Positions 17,365 through 25,851 of a stretch of DNA of 64,000 bases are shown in pieces. Source of the DNA: a virus. The position numbers were made by a program, and so were the translations under genes. The notes below the pieces were generated by a model, which saw nothing but the letters and a program-made list of their open reading frames with translations, did no database searches and was not told the origin of the DNA. Within the stretch, counting starts at the first letter, position 1. Each line of letters begins with the position of its first letter. Where the stretch lies: IMG/VR virus record IMGVR_UViG_3300025534_000004, positions 64,001 through 128,000 of that record; one strand, written 5' to 3'.

Positions 17365-17483
17365 TGCCTCTGGATATCTGGCCCTCCGTCCTGCGCGTAG
17401 CTTGCCAGCCGAACCAATGCATCCCAGTCCGGGCTAAATAAGTTCGGTTTTTGAGGCGCGACTGCGCAGGATTTGAGGAAGCC

Positions 17484-19514
17484 ATGTCGAACAAAAAGCT
17501 CCGCGTCAGGGACGGCATCGAGTCGGACGCCGACATCATTTCAGCCACGAGTGTACAGGCACCGACTTTCAAAGGCGCACTCGATGGCAATGCCGCCACT
17601 GCCACGAAGCTCGCTACCGCGCGCACTCTTGCACTGGCTGGCGACGCAACCGGTTCGATCAGCTTCGACGGCACCGCGAACCGTACCATCACCCTCACCC
17701 TTGTCGCCACCGGAGTCACCGCTGGAACCTATCGTTCGGTGGTGGTCGATGCCAAGGGTCGGGTGACCGGCGGCACGAATCCCACCATCACCCTGACAGG
17801 GGATGTGACCGGAAGCGGCGGTACCACCATCGCAACCACCCTGCGCGACACGGGCGTAGTTCCCGGCACCTACAACACGGTCGTCGTGGACGCCAAGGGA
17901 CGGATCACGGGCGCGACCAATGTCACGCCCGGCGCGCCTGCCTTCCTCACTATCGCCATGTCGGACGCCGACCTGTCCCTGACCGCGAGCCAGCAGGCGA
18001 ATGGCATGATTGTCCTGACCGGGTCCCTGACGGGCTACCGCTACGTCAATCTCTTGGCCGGGGTGCAGAAAACCGCCCTGACCATCCGCAACAACACGAC
18101 GGGCGGCTATCCGGTGATCCTCCGCGTGCTCAACGGCGGCGCCACGGTGTCGGTCGAGAGCGGCATGGCGCGCACCGTCCACTGCGACGGCACCAATGTC
18201 GTGGAAGCGATCTCCGCCATGGGGTCAATCTTCGTCGGCAACGGCAACGTCACCATCGGCAGCACCGTCATTCCGACCGCCAGTGGCCAGACCATCCTCA
18301 CCCTCGATCATCCGGCGAACGGCGGCGCCCTCGACCTGCGCAAGAATGGTTCGCGCTACGCCGCTCTGACCATTACCACCAACAATGCGCTGAACATCAA
18401 CGCCCTCGCTGGCGCCATCAATTTCCTGACCAGCAATACGACGCGCATGACGCTGGCCTCGAACGGCAAGCTCGGGATCGGCACCAATGCACCGGCCTAT
18501 CAGCTTGCCGTCGCGGGGGACGGCGGCGAGGTATCCGAAACCGATCCGGGCAACGGCACGACGTGGCGGAACGCGGCGATCAGCATCGCCAATACCAATC
18601 CGAACGCGCTGCGTACTTGGTCGCTTTCAACGCGCATCAATGGCACCCTCCATCTGGCCGATGACACCTCGGGCCGCACCCGCCTTTCCATCGATGCGCT
18701 GGGCAATCTCTACGTGGGCGATGCCACGGGCAACCAGATCGCCAACTTCGGCATGGTCCTGCGAGCCCATGCAGCCGCGTCGGGCGATGTTCGCCTCGTA
18801 CCGGGAGATGCGTCCTACTCCGGCCATCTCGCCTTCTATGGTCCGGATGGGTTGACCCGGTGCGGCATCGTCGGAAGGGCGGATGCCGACACCACGCATA
18901 TCGACGCCGATGGCAACCAATTGGCCTTTACGACCGGCGGCGGCACCGGCCGGGCGTTCCTGACCAAGGGCGGCCGGTTCTACGTCCCGACCGGCGAAGT
19001 CATCAACGTCAGCAACTACGGATACGTCAGCGGCAATTCCTCGGCGCCCACCGGCTTCTTCAGCGGCTCGGTTTCCGTGCCGGTCGGCCTGCACACCGAG
19101 CACCGGGCCATCGCGCTGGAATTCAATGCCTATTCCGACGAACGCTACAAGACGGATATCAAGGACATCACCGATGCGGAGGGCGTGGATTTCGTCCGCC
19201 GGGTGTCCCCCAAGACCTTCCATTTGAAGGACGATGCCTCGGGCGAGTTGAAGTCCGGCTACATCGCGCAGGAAGTCGCCAAATCCGGCGACTATGCCCA
19301 CATGGTGGAGCCGCACCGGCACGCCGGGCTGCCTGAGGTCACCGATGTGGACGGGTTCACCAGCCCGGCCGATGTCGGCCTGAGCATCAACTATCTGGAA
19401 GCCATCCCCTACCTGCACGCGGCGCTGCGCCATGCCTTAGCCCGCATAGCGGAGCTTGAGGCGAAGCTCGGGATGCGGGATCGCGAGCCCGGACGCCCGC
19501 CGCAGGCGCCATAA
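17484..19514 (+). CDS. Tail fibre with C-terminal S74 intramolecular chaperone
   Basis: GNAATATKLATART, duplicated GVTAGTYxxVVVDAKGR(V/I)TG, YSDERYKTDI...GYIAQEV...coiled coil; TAAATA at 17435-17440. Confidence 0.85.
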   Translation: MSNKKLRVRDGIESDADIISATSVQAPTFKGALDGNAATATKLATARTLALAGDATGSISFDGTANRTITLTLVATGVTAGTYRSVVVDAKGRVTGGTNPTITLTGDVTGSGGTTIATTLRDTGVVPGTYNTVVVDAKGRITGATNVTPGAPAFLTIAMSDADLSLTASQQANGMIVLTGSLTGYRYVNLLAGVQKTALTIRNNTTGGYPVILRVLNGGATVSVESGMARTVHCDGTNVVEAISAMGSIFVGNGNVTIGSTVIPTASGQTILTLDHPANGGALDLRKNGSRYAALTITTNNALNINALAGAINFLTSNTTRMTLASNGKLGIGTNAPAYQLAVAGDGGEVSETDPGNGTTWRNAAISIANTNPNALRTWSLSTRINGTLHLADDTSGRTRLSIDALGNLYVGDATGNQIANFGMVLRAHAAASGDVRLVPGDASYSGHLAFYGPDGLTRCGIVGRADADTTHIDADGNQLAFTTGGGTGRAFLTKGGRFYVPTGEVINVSNYGYVSGNSSAPTGFFSGSVSVPVGLHTEHRAIALEFNAYSDERYKTDIKDITDAEGVDFVRRVSPKTFHLKDDASGELKSGYIAQEVAKSGDYAHMVEPHRHAGLPEVTDVDGFTSPADVGLSINYLEAIPYLHAALRHALARIAELEAKLGMRDREPGRPPQAP

Positions 19515-19540: not shown

Positions 19541-20905
19541 ATGGCAATCCATAACTTGGACTACTGGTACGACGCCTCGATGCGTCGTTATCTGGAACAG
19601 ATCGTCGGCGCTTTTTCGGGCTTCCAGTACATGACCGGCTCGCGCAACGGCGCGGCGCCGCAGCTTATGACGGTGCCATGCACGCTCGCCAAGACCGACC
19701 GCATGGTGGGCCACATCATGCGGAATCTCTCGGAGAACACGCTCCTGACCGTCCCGATGATCACGGTGTACCAGACTGGCCTCACCGGTCGGCGCGACGA
19801 CGTGCAGTATCCGGGCTTCGTGGACACCTTGCAGGTGACCGAGCGCGCCATCGATCCAAGTGGCCGGTACACGGGCGAAAAGGGCAACAGCTATTCGGTG
19901 CAGCGGCTCATGCCGCGCCCGTTCCTCATGACGGTGCAGGTCGATCTCTGGACGAGCAATCTCGATCAGAAGCACCAGTTGGCCGAACAGATTCTCACGA
20001 TCATCTATCCGACCTTCGACATCCAGAACAGCAGCAACGCGCTGGACTGGACGGCGCTCACGACGATTTCGGTCGAGGACATTAGCTGGACCTCGCGCTC
20101 CATCCCTGTCGGAACCGAATCCGACATCGACATCATGACGATCACGCTGAACGTGCCGATCTGGCTGAGCCCGCCCGCCAAGGTGAAGCAGCAGAAGATC
20201 ATTCAGGCAATCGTGACGAACATCTTCGAGGGTGGGCGCGGGGGCGCGGATGGCCGGATGATGAAGAAGGCGCTGCTGGCGCAGCACGTCACCACGCCGC
20301 ACAACCATCGTTTGCTGGTGGATGGCGACGTGCTGACCCTTCTGAACGGCCATGGCGGCGAGACCGGCGAGGACGGCGAACCCCTCTCGTGGAAGCGCCT
20401 GTTCGAGGAATACGGCCTGTTCGTTCCGGGCCAGAGCCGCATTGCGCTCAATGGCACCGAGGATATCGAGGCCGAGGACCTGATCACCGGCCTGATCACC
20501 CTCGATGCCGCTGCGCCGAACAAGCTCCGCTGGCAGATCGACCCCGAGACCCTGCCCGCGAACACGCTGCCCGCCGTGGACGCCATCATCGACCCGGTGC
20601 GCACCGCCCCCGGCTCCGGCCTCCCGGCCCCGGTCGAGGGCATCCGGTACCTGCTCGTGGGGGATGTCGCCCCGAGCCTCGCATGGGGTCAATTCTCCGC
20701 CCGCGAGCACGACATCATCGAGTACCGCGAGGGGCAATGGACGGTGGCGTTCAAATCGGCCGAGGTCGCGGAGCCACAGTTCGTCCTCAACCGGAACAAG
20801 GGGCGTCAGTTGCGCTGGAACGGCCGCGAATGGCTGTTGAGCATCGACGGCGAGTACGGTCCGGGCTTCTGGAAGCTCATGCTCGCGGCCAATCCTGCCT
20901 CCTGA
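19541..20905 (+). CDS. Tail sheath stabiliser/terminator (T4 gp15-like) with C-terminal extension
   Basis: YWYDASMRRY...RLMPRPF...QKHQLAEQILTIIYP...PIWLSPPAKV. Confidence 0.8.
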   Translation: MAIHNLDYWYDASMRRYLEQIVGAFSGFQYMTGSRNGAAPQLMTVPCTLAKTDRMVGHIMRNLSENTLLTVPMITVYQTGLTGRRDDVQYPGFVDTLQVTERAIDPSGRYTGEKGNSYSVQRLMPRPFLMTVQVDLWTSNLDQKHQLAEQILTIIYPTFDIQNSSNALDWTALTTISVEDISWTSRSIPVGTESDIDIMTITLNVPIWLSPPAKVKQQKIIQAIVTNIFEGGRGGADGRMMKKALLAQHVTTPHNHRLLVDGDVLTLLNGHGGETGEDGEPLSWKRLFEEYGLFVPGQSRIALNGTEDIEAEDLITGLITLDAAAPNKLRWQIDPETLPANTLPAVDAIIDPVRTAPGSGLPAPVEGIRYLLVGDVAPSLAWGQFSAREHDIIEYREGQWTVAFKSAEVAEPQFVLNRNKGRQLRWNGREWLLSIDGEYGPGFWKLMLAANPAS

Positions 20906-21747: not shown

Positions 21748-22288
21748 ACCCTATTTATCAGCGGGGCTTAATCCCGCGCTCGCACCGAATTAGGAGGCGC
21801 TGCGGCGTGAAACCGGCTTGGACTTTACCGACCGGGAGGTCCGGACCGCCCTCGCCTCGGACCGGTTACAGGCTTCCGTGGGTGTGCGGGACTATCTGAT
21901 GGCGCGGGCCAAGCTCAAGCAGCAGCGACGCGCTGCGTGAGGAAGAACATGGATGCATAGGCGACCCCGTTGTCGATCCTGTCGTCAGGAAGCAGGCCGA
22001 CGAGGATTGCCTTTCTTTCCATGCAGGTTTCGATGAGATCGTTCATACCGGCTCCCATCTTGAATTTGTACTATTTCATCGATCTCGCCACGGGCCGCTA
22101 CTGGTCCTCGAACGCTCAGGATTTCGTCGCGCCTGCTGATGCAACGCCGCTGACGTGGTCCGACCGCGTATACCGTGGTGCGCCCGCTGCTCGACGATCC
22201 GGACTTCCGATATACCATGCTGGCCGTCGATGACGCTTCCGGTCGCGCCGTTCTGCTTCGTCGGCTCAAAGGGCACTATCAGGTTAGA

Positions 22289-23854
22289 TCACGCAGCCAC
22301 TAGGGCTGGTGTCGTCCCTGATTTCACGGACGCCTCGCGGCGTTTGGATGACCTCACCACGGCCAGCGACACCCCACCGAAGTAAGGGTTCGTCATTCGT
22401 GGGTCGGCGGGGGCACCCCTGCTCCCGGTTCTGCCCGGCCGCATGGACCGGACACGTCGCTCCCCGAAGGCGCGCACGACTTCGGCAAGGACAGACGCCT
22501 TCGACTGGAACACCGAACCGATAGCCAGCGCACGGCGCTGGCCGATGTTGGGTGCCGCATTGAGGTCGGCGTGCTTGGTGTGGCCGCACCACAGGCACCG
22601 GAAGGTGCCTTGTGATGGGCGATTGCGCTTGTCCACGTAGCCGCAGGCGTTGCAGGTCTGCGACGAATAGGCCGGGTTGACCTCGGTGGACGTGATGCCG
22701 AACCGCTGTTCGATGTCGGCCAATTTCGACTGGATGACGGACCTGCCGCAGTTCCGCAGGATGGCGTTCAGGCGTCGGGACAGGTCCGGGTTGCGGAAGT
22801 CCAGCCGCTCAAGAACCAGTTCCTTCGGGCGCCCCTGCGCCACGAGGTGGTTCAGGACGCGGCCGACCTCGGTGCGGAGGAACCCGCGCACGTCCTCGAC
22901 CAGCGCCCGATACCGCTTGCTGTCGCGGGGCTTCTTCCCGGCCCGCTGCTGGCTGGCGGCGATCATCGTGAGCAGGGCGTCGTAGCGCCGCAGGCGCCTG
23001 AGCCAGCCCTGCCCGAGCAACTGGCCCTCGGAGGTGGCGAATAGTGTGGAGAGGCCGAAGTCGAGCGCGATGACGCCGTGACCATTGTAGTCAGCACGCG
23101 ACTTGGCGCACGCCTCGCCCATGTCGGTGACGACGCCGAAGGTCAGCCGCCCCTCGCGGTTCAGATTGACCTGCACGCCGTTGGTGACACGACCCGGCCG
23201 CTCCGCATGGTAGTCGTAGGTCAGCAGCGGGACGGCGATTTTCCGGCCCGGCTCCATGGTGGACAGGTTGACCCACCAGCCGACCTTGCCGCCCTGCGTG
23301 GCCTTGGTCGGGGCCGCGAGGCAGGCGGCCCGGTGGTCGAGGCGCATGGAGATGCGGGACAGGTCCGGCCTGCGGTGCCGCCCCATGACATGCCGCATGA
23401 TGGACCGCGCCAGTCGCCGCACGTCGCCGGGGATAATTTCCCCGGTGTCCTTCATGGCGATGTCCGCCCGGAGGAACCACGCTCCCATGCGGTTCACGAC
23501 GTGGAGCATGTGCTTGGTGTCGGGCGGCAGGGTGCTCCGGTTCACCGCGTCGCGGAATTCGTTGGCGCGGTTGCTGATCCAGCCCTGCAACTGGCCGACG
23601 ACCTGATACCGGCACATCTGGACCCGGTTCGCCGCGCCGATGACGGCGGCGAAGGTCGTCTTGTCCACGTCGTGGTTCTTGTTGAACCGGCCCGTCTCGA
23701 AGAACAGCCGCCACTGCTCGCGCCCTAGCAACACCGCGCCCCGGCGATACGCCGCCAGCAGGTCCAGCACCTTCGCCCGCTTACCCGCCGTCAAGTTCGA
23801 CGGCAGGAGGTCGGTGCGGTGGACCGGCGGGTGTTCGGGGCGCTTGCGTGCCAT
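22289..23854 (-). CDS. tnpB: TnpB/Cas12-like RNA-guided endonuclease, 521 aa
   Basis: RuvC-I ALDFG, RuvC-II LVLERL, VNPAYSSQTCNACG...CLWCG zinc ribbon, RuvC-III HADLNAA. Confidence 0.9.
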   Translation of the reverse strand: MARKRPEHPPVHRTDLLPSNLTAGKRAKVLDLLAAYRRGAVLLGREQWRLFFETGRFNKNHDVDKTTFAAVIGAANRVQMCRYQVVGQLQGWISNRANEFRDAVNRSTLPPDTKHMLHVVNRMGAWFLRADIAMKDTGEIIPGDVRRLARSIMRHVMGRHRRPDLSRISMRLDHRAACLAAPTKATQGGKVGWWVNLSTMEPGRKIAVPLLTYDYHAERPGRVTNGVQVNLNREGRLTFGVVTDMGEACAKSRADYNGHGVIALDFGLSTLFATSEGQLLGQGWLRRLRRYDALLTMIAASQQRAGKKPRDSKRYRALVEDVRGFLRTEVGRVLNHLVAQGRPKELVLERLDFRNPDLSRRLNAILRNCGRSVIQSKLADIEQRFGITSTEVNPAYSSQTCNACGYVDKRNRPSQGTFRCLWCGHTKHADLNAAPNIGQRRALAIGSVFQSKASVLAEVVRAFGERRVRSMRPGRTGSRGAPADPRMTNPYFGGVSLAVVRSSKRREASVKSGTTPALVAA

Positions 23855-24819
23855 CAGGCCGCTTTCGCCGTGACGAAGCCGTAGGACAGCAACCGCCCTT
23901 CGCCGTTGCGGACCATCTGCGTCATCCGGTCGAGGCAGGCGTCACCCTTGCGGTTCCAGCGGAAGGTGGCCTCGCTGGCATACCTGCCGAGGTGCTTGAC
24001 GCTGATCTGGTGCCAGACGCCGATGACGGCGCGGCGCATGAAGCCGTTGAAGGATTCGACCCGGTTGACGTGAACCCGGTGCCCTGTCGCCTCATCGGTG
24101 CGGGCATACTCGCGGTCGGAGTGATTGACCGAGAGGTGAGGCTGGTTCTTGCCGATGTGCTTGTAGGCCGGGAGGCCGTCCGTCATCACCGTGGCCTTCG
24201 GGTCCACCACCCCGTCCAGTGCCTCAGAAATCGCGGCCTTGCCGTGCGTCGGGATGACCTTCGCCACCACATCTCCGCCACGTTCGGCGGCCACGAGAAC
24301 GAGCGGGCGCTTGGTGCCCCGTCCTTTCGGGTTGGCGGGCGGCGGCTCGCTGTCGTCGTGGTCACGGGACGGCTTGGCCCGCTTCCGGGGCGGCGCACCC
24401 GCATACATCTCGTCAATCTCGACCACCCCGGCGAGAATGGGATTGGCTTCGGCCATCATTGCCCGGATGCGGTGCCCGAGGTGCCATGCGGTCGGGTATG
24501 AGACGCCCAACATCTCGCCCAACTTGACCGCGCTGATACCCTTGCTGGATGCCACAATCAGGTAGAACGCCTGCAACCATGTCAGCAGGGGCAAATGCGT
24601 CCGGTGCATCGGCGTCCCCGCCGTGACCGAGAAGTGCTTCCGGCAACCCGAGCAGCACCAGACCCGCTTCGTCCCGATCCACCACGCCTTGCCGACGAGG
24701 CCGCAGTGGTAGCACTCAGGGCCGTTCGGCCACCGGGCGTGCTCGAACCACGCCCGAGCGGCGTCCTCGTCGGGGAACATGGCGTTGAAGGCACGGAGGG
24801 ACATGGACTGCTGACTCAC
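23854..24819 (-). CDS. IS1595-family DDE transposase
   Basis: RWPNGPECYHCG...CSGC zinc ribbon, SKGISAVKL HTH, VEIDEMY, MTDGLPAY, VNHS, VNRVESF, KHLGRY...FRWN. Confidence 0.92.
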   Translation of the reverse strand: MSQQSMSLRAFNAMFPDEDAARAWFEHARWPNGPECYHCGLVGKAWWIGTKRVWCCSGCRKHFSVTAGTPMHRTHLPLLTWLQAFYLIVASSKGISAVKLGEMLGVSYPTAWHLGHRIRAMMAEANPILAGVVEIDEMYAGAPPRKRAKPSRDHDDSEPPPANPKGRGTKRPLVLVAAERGGDVVAKVIPTHGKAAISEALDGVVDPKATVMTDGLPAYKHIGKNQPHLSVNHSDREYARTDEATGHRVHVNRVESFNGFMRRAVIGVWHQISVKHLGRYASEATFRWNRKGDACLDRMTQMVRNGEGRLLSYGFVTAKAA

Positions 24820-25248
24820 GTTGCGACACTACATCTATTCAGCGTGTTCGTCAACCTGATAGGTCCGGGCTCAAATATCTGATCGGCATTCAGCGAAGTG
24901 CCCGTCACGCCGGAGATGCTCATCGAGGCTCTCCGCCCGCACGACGCGGTGTTGTGGTCCCATCTGGCGCTGGTTGATCATAAGGATGTCGTGGTGTCCG
25001 GGCGTCCGGTCAGGGATTTCGATCCCGAGGGCTGTGCCGAGCGTCTTTCGCGGATCGGAGTCTCGCCCGCGAATTACCGGATCGTCCCGCTCGGCAGTCT
25101 CCTGCTCAATGAGGAAGGCGCAGCGATGGTGATGCTCGCCGGAGGGAAGGCCGTCGGCCTCGACGCCGCCCGCGCTATCGCGGCAGAATGCAGTTTCGTA
25201 GAACTTCTTTCTTGACGTTCATCGCTCCTATGGCAGAGTACGGCCAGA

Positions 25249-25851
25249 ATGCGATTTCAGGAGCCGTCGATGCCGCAGGTCCGGATGTGGAAGTGCCCCA
25301 AGACGGGCAAGCTGTTCGAGGACCTCGACGAATACCGTCAGCATCTCCGCGAGGTCGCGAGCGAGCGGTTCATGCGCCGGAAGGCCGTTGATTTCGTGCG
25401 GGCCGCCACCAGCGAGCTTCGGTGCCAGTCCAGCTTCGAGGACATCGCCGAGTGGATCGTCGCCAACAGCACCATGCTGGCGGTACGGGCTGCCTATCAT
25501 AATGCCATCGGGTGGCGGCAGGGCGAGCCGAACCTGATCCCGCCCTTTTTCTTCATCCGGCACGTCGAGTTCAAGGACATGGAGTGGCGTGAGGCCATCC
25601 GCCATAACAACCACGCTCCGCTCGGCCAGCCGACAGACCGGGATGTGGCCTCATCAGGATGGTATGGACGGTTGATCTTCCGGGCCAAGGGCGACCATTA
25701 CTGCATTACGAGGGATTTGTTCGCGGAGACCGGCATCAACCTCTGCAACGGGGTGGGCGGCGACGGGCGCTACCGATACCAAGTGATCCTGTTCGATGAG
25801 GATTTCCCGAACCTCTCGGTGATGTCCCGCCTGCGGCAGGAGGCGGCCTAA
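25249..25851 (+). CDS. Hypothetical protein (start may be 25270)
   Basis: WKCPKTGKLF...HLR; TTGACG promoter at 25212. Confidence 0.55.
   Translation: MRFQEPSMPQVRMWKCPKTGKLFEDLDEYRQHLREVASERFMRRKAVDFVRAATSELRCQSSFEDIAEWIVANSTMLAVRAAYHNAIGWRQGEPNLIPPFFFIRHVEFKDMEWREAIRHNNHAPLGQPTDRDVASSGWYGRLIFRAKGDHYCITRDLFAETGINLCNGVGGDGRYRYQVILFDEDFPNLSVMSRLRQEAA

Follow-up and report, generated by a model that had tools for sequence, protein, structure and literature searches.

The stretch analysed here (hereafter the window) comprises 64,000 nucleotides of viral DNA, positions 64,001 to 128,000 of the IMG/VR record IMGVR_UViG_3300025534_000004, and contains at 22271-24867 an intact element of 2597 bp in which the transposase gene of an IS1595-family insertion sequence (IS) is followed by a gene for a TnpB-like nuclease. 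Both open reading frames (ORFs) are on the minus strand, the transposase at 24819..23854 (321 amino acids) and the TnpB-like protein at 23854..22289 (521 amino acids), and both are enclosed by inverted ends and an exact target-site duplication. The 15-nt terminal inverted repeats, GGGCACTATCAGGTT at 22271-22285 (tnpB-proximal, plus strand) and AACCTGATAGGTCCG at 24853-24867 (transposase-proximal; CGGACCTATCAGGTT in the sense of the genes, as reverse complement), are identical at 12 of 15 positions. They are flanked by the 8-bp duplication GGCTCAAA, read at 22263-22270 on the tnpB side and at 24868-24875 on the transposase side. The TGA stop codon of the transposase and the ATG start codon of tnpB have one base in common (TGATG at 23856..23852), and 18 nt separate the tnpB stop codon (22291..22289) from the end of the element at 22271. 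The inverted ends, the duplication, the overlap and the stop distance had been described in an earlier note on this DNA, and all were found where that note had placed them. The source record is 147.7 kb long with an estimated completeness of 28%, and the element is single-copy there. In the reconstructed uninterrupted site the junction is spanned by a 65-amino-acid ORF only; an exact search of viral contigs for this empty site gave no match, and no contig spanning the site without the element was present in four sequencing runs. The element is real, intact and recently inserted.

The product of the first gene matched the profiles PF12762 (1.6e-32), PF12760 (5e-09) and NF033547 (1.1e-47; 162.7 bits against a cutoff of 75), by which it is an IS1595 transposase with an ISXO2-like DDE catalytic domain and an N-terminal zinc ribbon. 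The second protein matched PF07282, the Cas12f1-like TNB domain, at 7.2e-15, and stayed under the NCBIfam cutoffs for IS200_TnpB and IS607_TnpB. A search of 5.8 billion proteins yielded more than 120 full-length homologs (about 520 amino acids, 56-94% identity), many of them on contigs as long as the element (2.5-2.6 kb). The earlier note had stated that the RuvC acidic motifs and the zinc ribbon are kept, in agreement with an 18-member family alignment where D265 and D430 of the triad and the four cysteines C401, C404, C420 and C423 are invariant and E349 is present in at least 90% of the members. The profile of this alignment matched solved Cas12f, TnpB, Cas-phi and Cas12m chains; ALDFG, LERLDF and HADLNAA aligned with the RuvC I-III motifs of solved structures, and the zinc-ribbon residues likewise with those of solved Cas12f. 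An AlphaFold model had a mean predicted local distance difference test score (pLDDT) of 67.5 and was good at residues 10-255. Foldseek comparison with the PDB gave Cas12f, TnpB and other Cas12 proteins as all of the top 30 or more matches (E 9e-9 to 1e-3), at TM-scores of only 0.2-0.3, the RuvC half of the model being poor. On domains, alignment and structure comparison, the second gene (22289..23854) is read as encoding a divergent, catalytically intact TnpB-family nuclease.

The two genes belong together well beyond the window. In the species-representative genomes (Ramlibacter, Parvibaculum, a Rhodothalassiaceae metagenome-assembled genome (MAG), Azospirillum, Acidiphilium, Halorhodospira, an Ectothiorhodospiraceae MAG and Paracoccus), all loci whose TnpB is 41% identical or more have an IS1595 transposase directly upstream on the same strand. 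In metagenomes, where the TnpB was at least 45% identical and the contig reached 1.1 kb or more upstream, the locus carried a full transposase in 23 cases, a partial remnant in 11 and none in 15. Viewed from the transposase, homologs at 93%, 79% (eight places) and 59% identity all have tnpB downstream, with ORFs overlapping or abutting, and every sampled homolog of at least 59% identity has tnpB; absence was seen only at 44% identity and below, namely in one homolog of 44% and at 28 loci with transposases of 32-38% identity, where no TnpB was found within 1.5 kb (301 alphaproteobacterial genomes). One locus (L182, genome G245) was left out throughout, except from the tally of these 301 genomes. 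Nine of 12 intact pairs show the 1-nt overlap or abutment of the ORFs. Pairwise distances of the two proteins correlate (Mantel r = 0.63, a value reached by 17 of 5000 permutations), and the two protein trees have two well-supported clades in common; L005 and L006/L122 are placed differently, and modules have thus at times passed between related elements. The transposase frame is broken and tnpB open in the otherwise intact L002, L100, L109, L110 and L112; these may be decaying transposases or cases of frameshift.

The arrangement could also have arisen by passive cargo or accidental nesting, that is, an IS605/IS607-type TnpB element inserted into an IS1595 element or was taken up by one, with no functional link. 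A capture did happen at some point, since the nearest outgroup TnpBs are of the IS607 type: at the outgroup locus L010 (37% TnpB identity) a serine recombinase overlaps the start of the gene, the only matches in cultured phages were in Thermus phages TMA and YS40 (33%, annotated IS607 ISCARN1), and IS607 contexts appear only at 33-37% TnpB identity. The module exchange seen in the trees also speaks for this explanation, and IS1595-family elements with passenger genes are recorded in ISfinder. Inside the element, however, there is neither a Y1 transposase nor a serine recombinase, and no IS605/IS607-type ends. The pairing is kept from 100% to about 41% TnpB identity and in all close transposase homologs sampled, and the stop/start overlap is conserved. 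The covarying RNA described below adjoins the IS1595 terminal repeat itself, and a one-sided RTA motif is placed exactly at the position predicted for a target-adjacent motif (TAM). Nesting without a functional link is therefore improbable. The earlier note had proposed a co-adapted DDE and TnpB unit instead of a nested insertion, and this proposal is borne out by conserved synteny and overlap, by the single repeat pair and duplication that bound both genes, and by the correlated trees; close TnpB homologs were found in IS1595 contexts or as solo genes with IS1595-type ends, and transposase homologs of 59-93% identity all have tnpB, the opposite of what the note had named as grounds for refuting it. 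It is very likely that IS1595 and TnpB form a co-evolved mobile unit.

The unit is mobile. A search by inverted ends and duplications gave about 20 independent insertions with the same ends, each with a different exact 8-bp duplication. Their ends follow CGGnnnTATC.../...GATAGTGCCC, the first part of which is similar to ends of the ISNwi1/ISSod11 type in IS1595, and the motif CGGnnnTATC...TTGAC of the transposase-proximal repeat is common to the relatives. Three elements of 1.66 kb (L113, L115 and L116) are without the transposase and have kept tnpB, the same ends, the duplication and the TA motif; they are non-autonomous derivatives. Among Logan contigs the same IS was joined to other flanks in two runs, one from wastewater and one from a bioreactor in which 97% of the sampled words were present, and copies 95-99% alike were present in hot-spring runs. 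Element DNA had no match in the cultured-phage collection, and a pattern scan of viral_contigs found no relative.

Several further copies were observed. L101 (3880-5582; same place in L102 and L119) has a lone 76%-identical tnpB surrounded by SSB, DUF1064 and many small ORFs, and its protein was read on 12 contigs, mostly at the same place. Of the two element ends, L101 keeps the one on the tnpB side with its flank; none was found on the transposase side, and about 35 nt surrounding the tnpB start occur a second time immediately upstream. The copy has the look of a one-ended remnant that became fixed in a lineage of phages or prophages. L229-L236 hold one identical IS with four left and four right flanks in mismatched pairs, and AAGTTCGC, the left duplication in L230, recurs as the right duplication of L231 and L235, which indicates assembly chimeras across a multi-copy IS; the same chimerism probably explains the mismatched duplications in L106, L107 and L112. 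In L117, a 149-amino-acid ORF (1064-1513) with a TnsA-like endonuclease N-terminal domain (PF08722, 3e-20) is just upstream of a solo tnpB 71% identical to that of the window, and a link to a Tn7-like context is possible. L098 contains a second, larger IS1595-family transposase gene (389 amino acids, 1464-2633) in opposite orientation about 400 nt upstream of its IS1595-TnpB element. In the bioreactor run X1, one contig has 38 other letters in place of the DNA between 22736 and 24237; it is a relative or deleted variant without most of tnpB and part of the transposase.

The tnpB end of the element carries a conserved RNA structure. The last 260 nt of 44 non-redundant elements were aligned, and a structure was built from segment-wise RNAalifold predictions and one hand-placed hairpin, RNAalifold on the full 352-column alignment having given two helices only. 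The assembled structure has 53 pairs in 11 helices, with 90.2% of cells paired compared with 39-47% when the partners were slid by 1-3 columns. Compensatory changes occur in 31 pairs, and the covariation score of 0.304 (0.06-0.08 in the slid controls) was reached by none of 500 shuffles. In the window the RNA extends from about 22495 to 22298 on the minus strand and is followed by the terminal repeat, so that the predicted scaffold, with about 220 nt of covarying helices, occupies 22271..22495 and overlaps the last ~75 codons of tnpB. Its helices include a UUCG-type and a GNRA-type hairpin. In the protein these two hairpins read as the tail motifs GSRGAPADPR and NPYFGG, and an RNA constraint thus accounts in part for the apparent conservation of the C-terminal ~75 residues. 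The length of 521 amino acids, greater than usual for TnpB, is attributed to the ORF reading through the RNA region. No Rfam family matched within 21800-25300, even at E up to 1. In an anaerobic-digester metatranscriptome, a contig of 268 nt (11 differences) covered 22298-22565, nearly exactly the scaffold region, its ends and strand not being resolvable, and other metatranscriptome contigs covered parts of both genes. In position and size the covarying RNA is as expected for an omega-RNA scaffold, and this is its likely identity.

A sharp motif was found on the opposite side of the element. With flanks oriented so that the transposase precedes tnpB, 37 of the 38 distinct left flanks have TA just outside the transposase-side duplication, extended to RTA in 35 (position -1 is A in 38/38, -2 is T in 37/38 and -3 is R in 35/38). 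The first base of the duplication is A or T (W) in 37/38 left and 40/40 right flanks. For positions -2 and -1 the binomial P was at most 1e-21, as calculated from an earlier count of 33 flanks on a GC-rich background (flanks of about 69% G+C). Nothing comparable was present on the other flank, where only a weak A was seen at the second base past the duplication (20/40, P ~1e-7). The window's version of the motif is ATA (24876-24878, read on the minus strand), which adjoins the duplication on the transposase side. TA was not present at the single Paracoccus copy. Two distant solo TnpB relatives (L149 and L152, 39-40% identity) have different inverted ends, GGCnTTGCG...GAGGTTG, with exact 8-bp duplications, and show CT before an initial A where the family of the window element has TA before W (two sites only). 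Regarding IS1595 elements lacking tnpB, ends were not definable at the 28 loci mentioned above, nor by inverted-repeat search; among 20 fetched tnpB-less copies a repeat family was found in one genome only and extended past the fetched stretch, and the ends of the tnpB-less IS with the 44%-identity transposase were not found.

The motif may be the work of the transposase alone, RTA before W being an intrinsic, orientation-specific preference to which TnpB has adapted its TAM, or beside which TnpB regulates transposition or represses transcription. A near-universal motif (37/38) fits a chemical requirement of integration better than a survival bias, the weak mirrored A in half of the right flanks hints at a partly symmetric preference of the transposase, and in IS605 the target of TnpA is the TAM. 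The usual target preferences of DDE transposases are symmetric, whereas the asymmetry here is extreme and tied to the orientation of tnpB, and the intact catalytic triad argues against a nuclease-dead regulator. We regard this explanation as possible though not the probable one; it is compatible with TnpB homing on the same motif and not opposed to it.

The interpretation that we favour, and consider probable by a limited margin of belief, is an IS1595 insertion sequence with a co-evolved TnpB-like RuvC nuclease as passenger and an omega-RNA scaffold, where RTA serves as the TAM for cutting of empty sites. The DDE transposase would mobilise the whole unit, and the transposase-less derivatives in trans, with 8-bp target duplications as the result. 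The scaffold RNA, transcribed with or within the 3' end of tnpB, would read outward through the terminal repeat, and the guide would therefore consist of the duplicated 8 bp and the adjacent flank. In the window these would be 22263..22270, the first 8 nt of the predicted guide, and 22251..22262 (minus strand), which on the TnpB/omega-RNA paradigm would supply the rest of a guide of about 20 nt. With such a guide, the RTA would stand directly 5' of the target on the non-target strand of an unoccupied site, which is the position of a TAM. TnpB may then cut empty alleles, whether on a sister chromosome, a plasmid copy or a co-infecting phage genome, and recombinational repair from the occupied copy would restore or spread the element. 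Once the site is occupied, ...GTGCCC and not RTA stands before the target, and for this reason the element would spare itself. Homing of this kind at vacant sites was reportedly demonstrated for IS605-type elements in 2023.

A third role for the nuclease would lie in integration itself, TnpB recognising the TAM without a guide match and recruiting or orienting the DDE transposase at RTA, a primitive coupling like that of CRISPR-associated transposons (CAST). The insertions are indeed strictly one-sided and strictly oriented relative to RTA, and the stop/start overlap provides translational coupling of the two genes. There is, however, no evidence of contact between TnpB and the transposase, and we know of no precedent for guide-independent targeting by TnpB. 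The transposase-less and one-ended copies indicate that the genes can separate, and, unlike the nuclease-dead CAST effectors, TnpB has its nuclease residues intact. Such a role is very improbable.

Several observations weigh against an RNA-guided homing system. The second protein scored 70 bits with NF040570 (guided_TnpB), for which the cutoff is 100, with only its C-terminal half matched, and in the AlphaFold model residues 390-521 had pLDDT below 50, the RuvC half being poor. The RNA structure was scored on the same alignment from which it was derived, and the single-sequence fold of the 225-nt tail was no better than shuffles (z = -0.88), so that the RNA rests on covariation; for GC-rich RNA such a comparison with shuffles is uninformative. 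The only RNA-library signal comes from metatranscriptome contigs of a 95-99% relative, with ends and strand not resolvable and DNA carry-over possible, and these contigs, which cannot show ends, gave no transcript crossing 22271. The transposase and TnpB trees are congruent in part only: of the comparison of trees put forward in the note, the correlation is significant and full congruence did not emerge. An asymmetric target preference that resides in the transposase and has nothing to do with TnpB could also account for RTA. Finally, excision by a cut-and-paste DDE transposase already leaves a double-strand break, which makes the advantage of a homing nuclease harder to see than in IS605 (PMC13565253).

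The homing model gains plausibility from the covarying RNA and from an RTA that stands on one side only. Anatomy, mobility of the unit, conserved pairing of the two genes, the covarying RNA and the RTA-W motif are observed; the origin of the guide, RTA acting as TAM, cleavage and homing are our inference. That TnpB acts as an RTA-dependent, RNA-guided nuclease of homing or retention is an even call, perhaps slightly better. The complete scenario is put forward only tentatively, and we lean towards doubting it: a duplication-making DDE insertion sequence would have built TnpB cleavage into its life cycle, with a guide that starts with its own 8-bp duplication and an RTA TAM outside the far side, so that only empty alleles are cut and the element homes like a programmable homing endonuclease, also between co-infecting genomes of large phages.

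TnpB within a DDE transposon is a known arrangement. In 2023 six TnpB branches with DDE transposases, DDE-1 to DDE-6, were described, all with inverted terminal repeats and with the TnpB 3' end at most 250 bp from the transposon end, together with solo TnpB copies that have the same ends, some of them in viruses (Altae-Tran et al., PNAS, PMC10691335). The window element resembles these branches in its adjacent DDE transposase, its inverted repeats and the 18 nt between tnpB stop and end. It differs in its partner, which is IS1595/ISXO2-like, while IS630 (DDE-6) is the only partner named in the main text of that paper; translational coupling, the logic of the 8-bp duplication and a one-sided RTA are likewise absent from that main text. 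A 2026 review lists ISL2, IS630 and IS1031 as DDE partners and considers the benefit of TnpB to DDE elements unclear (PMC13565253). Full-text literature searches, outside which the supplementary tables of PMC10691335 lie, returned no paper with IS1595 as a TnpB partner. The suggestion of the earlier note that the pairing was uncharacterised thus fails for DDE-linked TnpBs with inverted repeats in general and stands, within these searches, for the IS1595 partner. What is new here is IS1595 as the partner, together with translational coupling of the genes, a defined scaffold and the sharp RTA-W motif on one side.

With the IS200/IS605 and IS607 elements (ISDra2 and others) the window element shares a TnpB with RuvC and zinc ribbon, a scaffold RNA that overlaps the 3' end of tnpB and stops at the transposon end, and a conserved motif on the opposite flank at the TAM position. 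It differs from them in having inverted repeats and 8-bp duplications and no Y1 (HUH) transposase or serine recombinase, in a predicted guide that begins with the duplicated target, and in its longer protein (521 amino acids). Fanzor/HERMES offer another parallel, a TnpB-family nuclease inside transposons that have terminal inverted repeats and form target-site duplications; there, the TAM preference aligns with the insertion-site sequence, and the guide RNA crosses the terminal repeat into the duplication (PMC10312701). Those systems, in contrast, have eukaryotic or giant-virus hosts, other transposon superfamilies, longer proteins and experimentally demonstrated activity, whereas the present element is known from sequence alone. 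Ordinary IS1595 insertion sequences have the same transposase domains, short terminal repeats and 8-bp duplications, but are of about 1 kb and carry the transposase only.

Just upstream of the element in the window are genes for a tail fibre (17451-19514) and a tail sheath (19541-20905), and the host replicon is therefore a large tailed phage. Homologous insertions are found in phage-like contexts in L230 (beside terminase and primase-polymerase genes), L229, L095 and L101. L095 (1-13572) carries a 92%-identical copy of the whole IS on a contig encoding Ro60/TROVE, PTH2, ART-PolyVal and PcfJ-like proteins, and is possibly another large phage or a plasmid.

TnpB, the ancestor of Cas12, is among the most abundant of prokaryotic genes, and to our knowledge its biology has been worked out only for the scarless IS605/IS607 elements. 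Whether and how TnpB helps a duplication-making DDE transposon is a question for which this family provides a clean test system: a compact 2.6-kb unit with coupled genes, a defined RNA scaffold and natural transposase-less derivatives, and with the sharp prediction that the TAM is RTA and the guide is the duplication plus flank. IS1595-TnpB elements enter the genomes of large phages, and there, with recombination among numerous genome copies, homing would bring its greatest return. For genome editing, a divergent TnpB whose motif is short and contains A/T could be of interest. If the complete scenario is true, the almost invariant RTA on one side would give the first natural record of a TAM that shapes the distribution of a DDE transposon.

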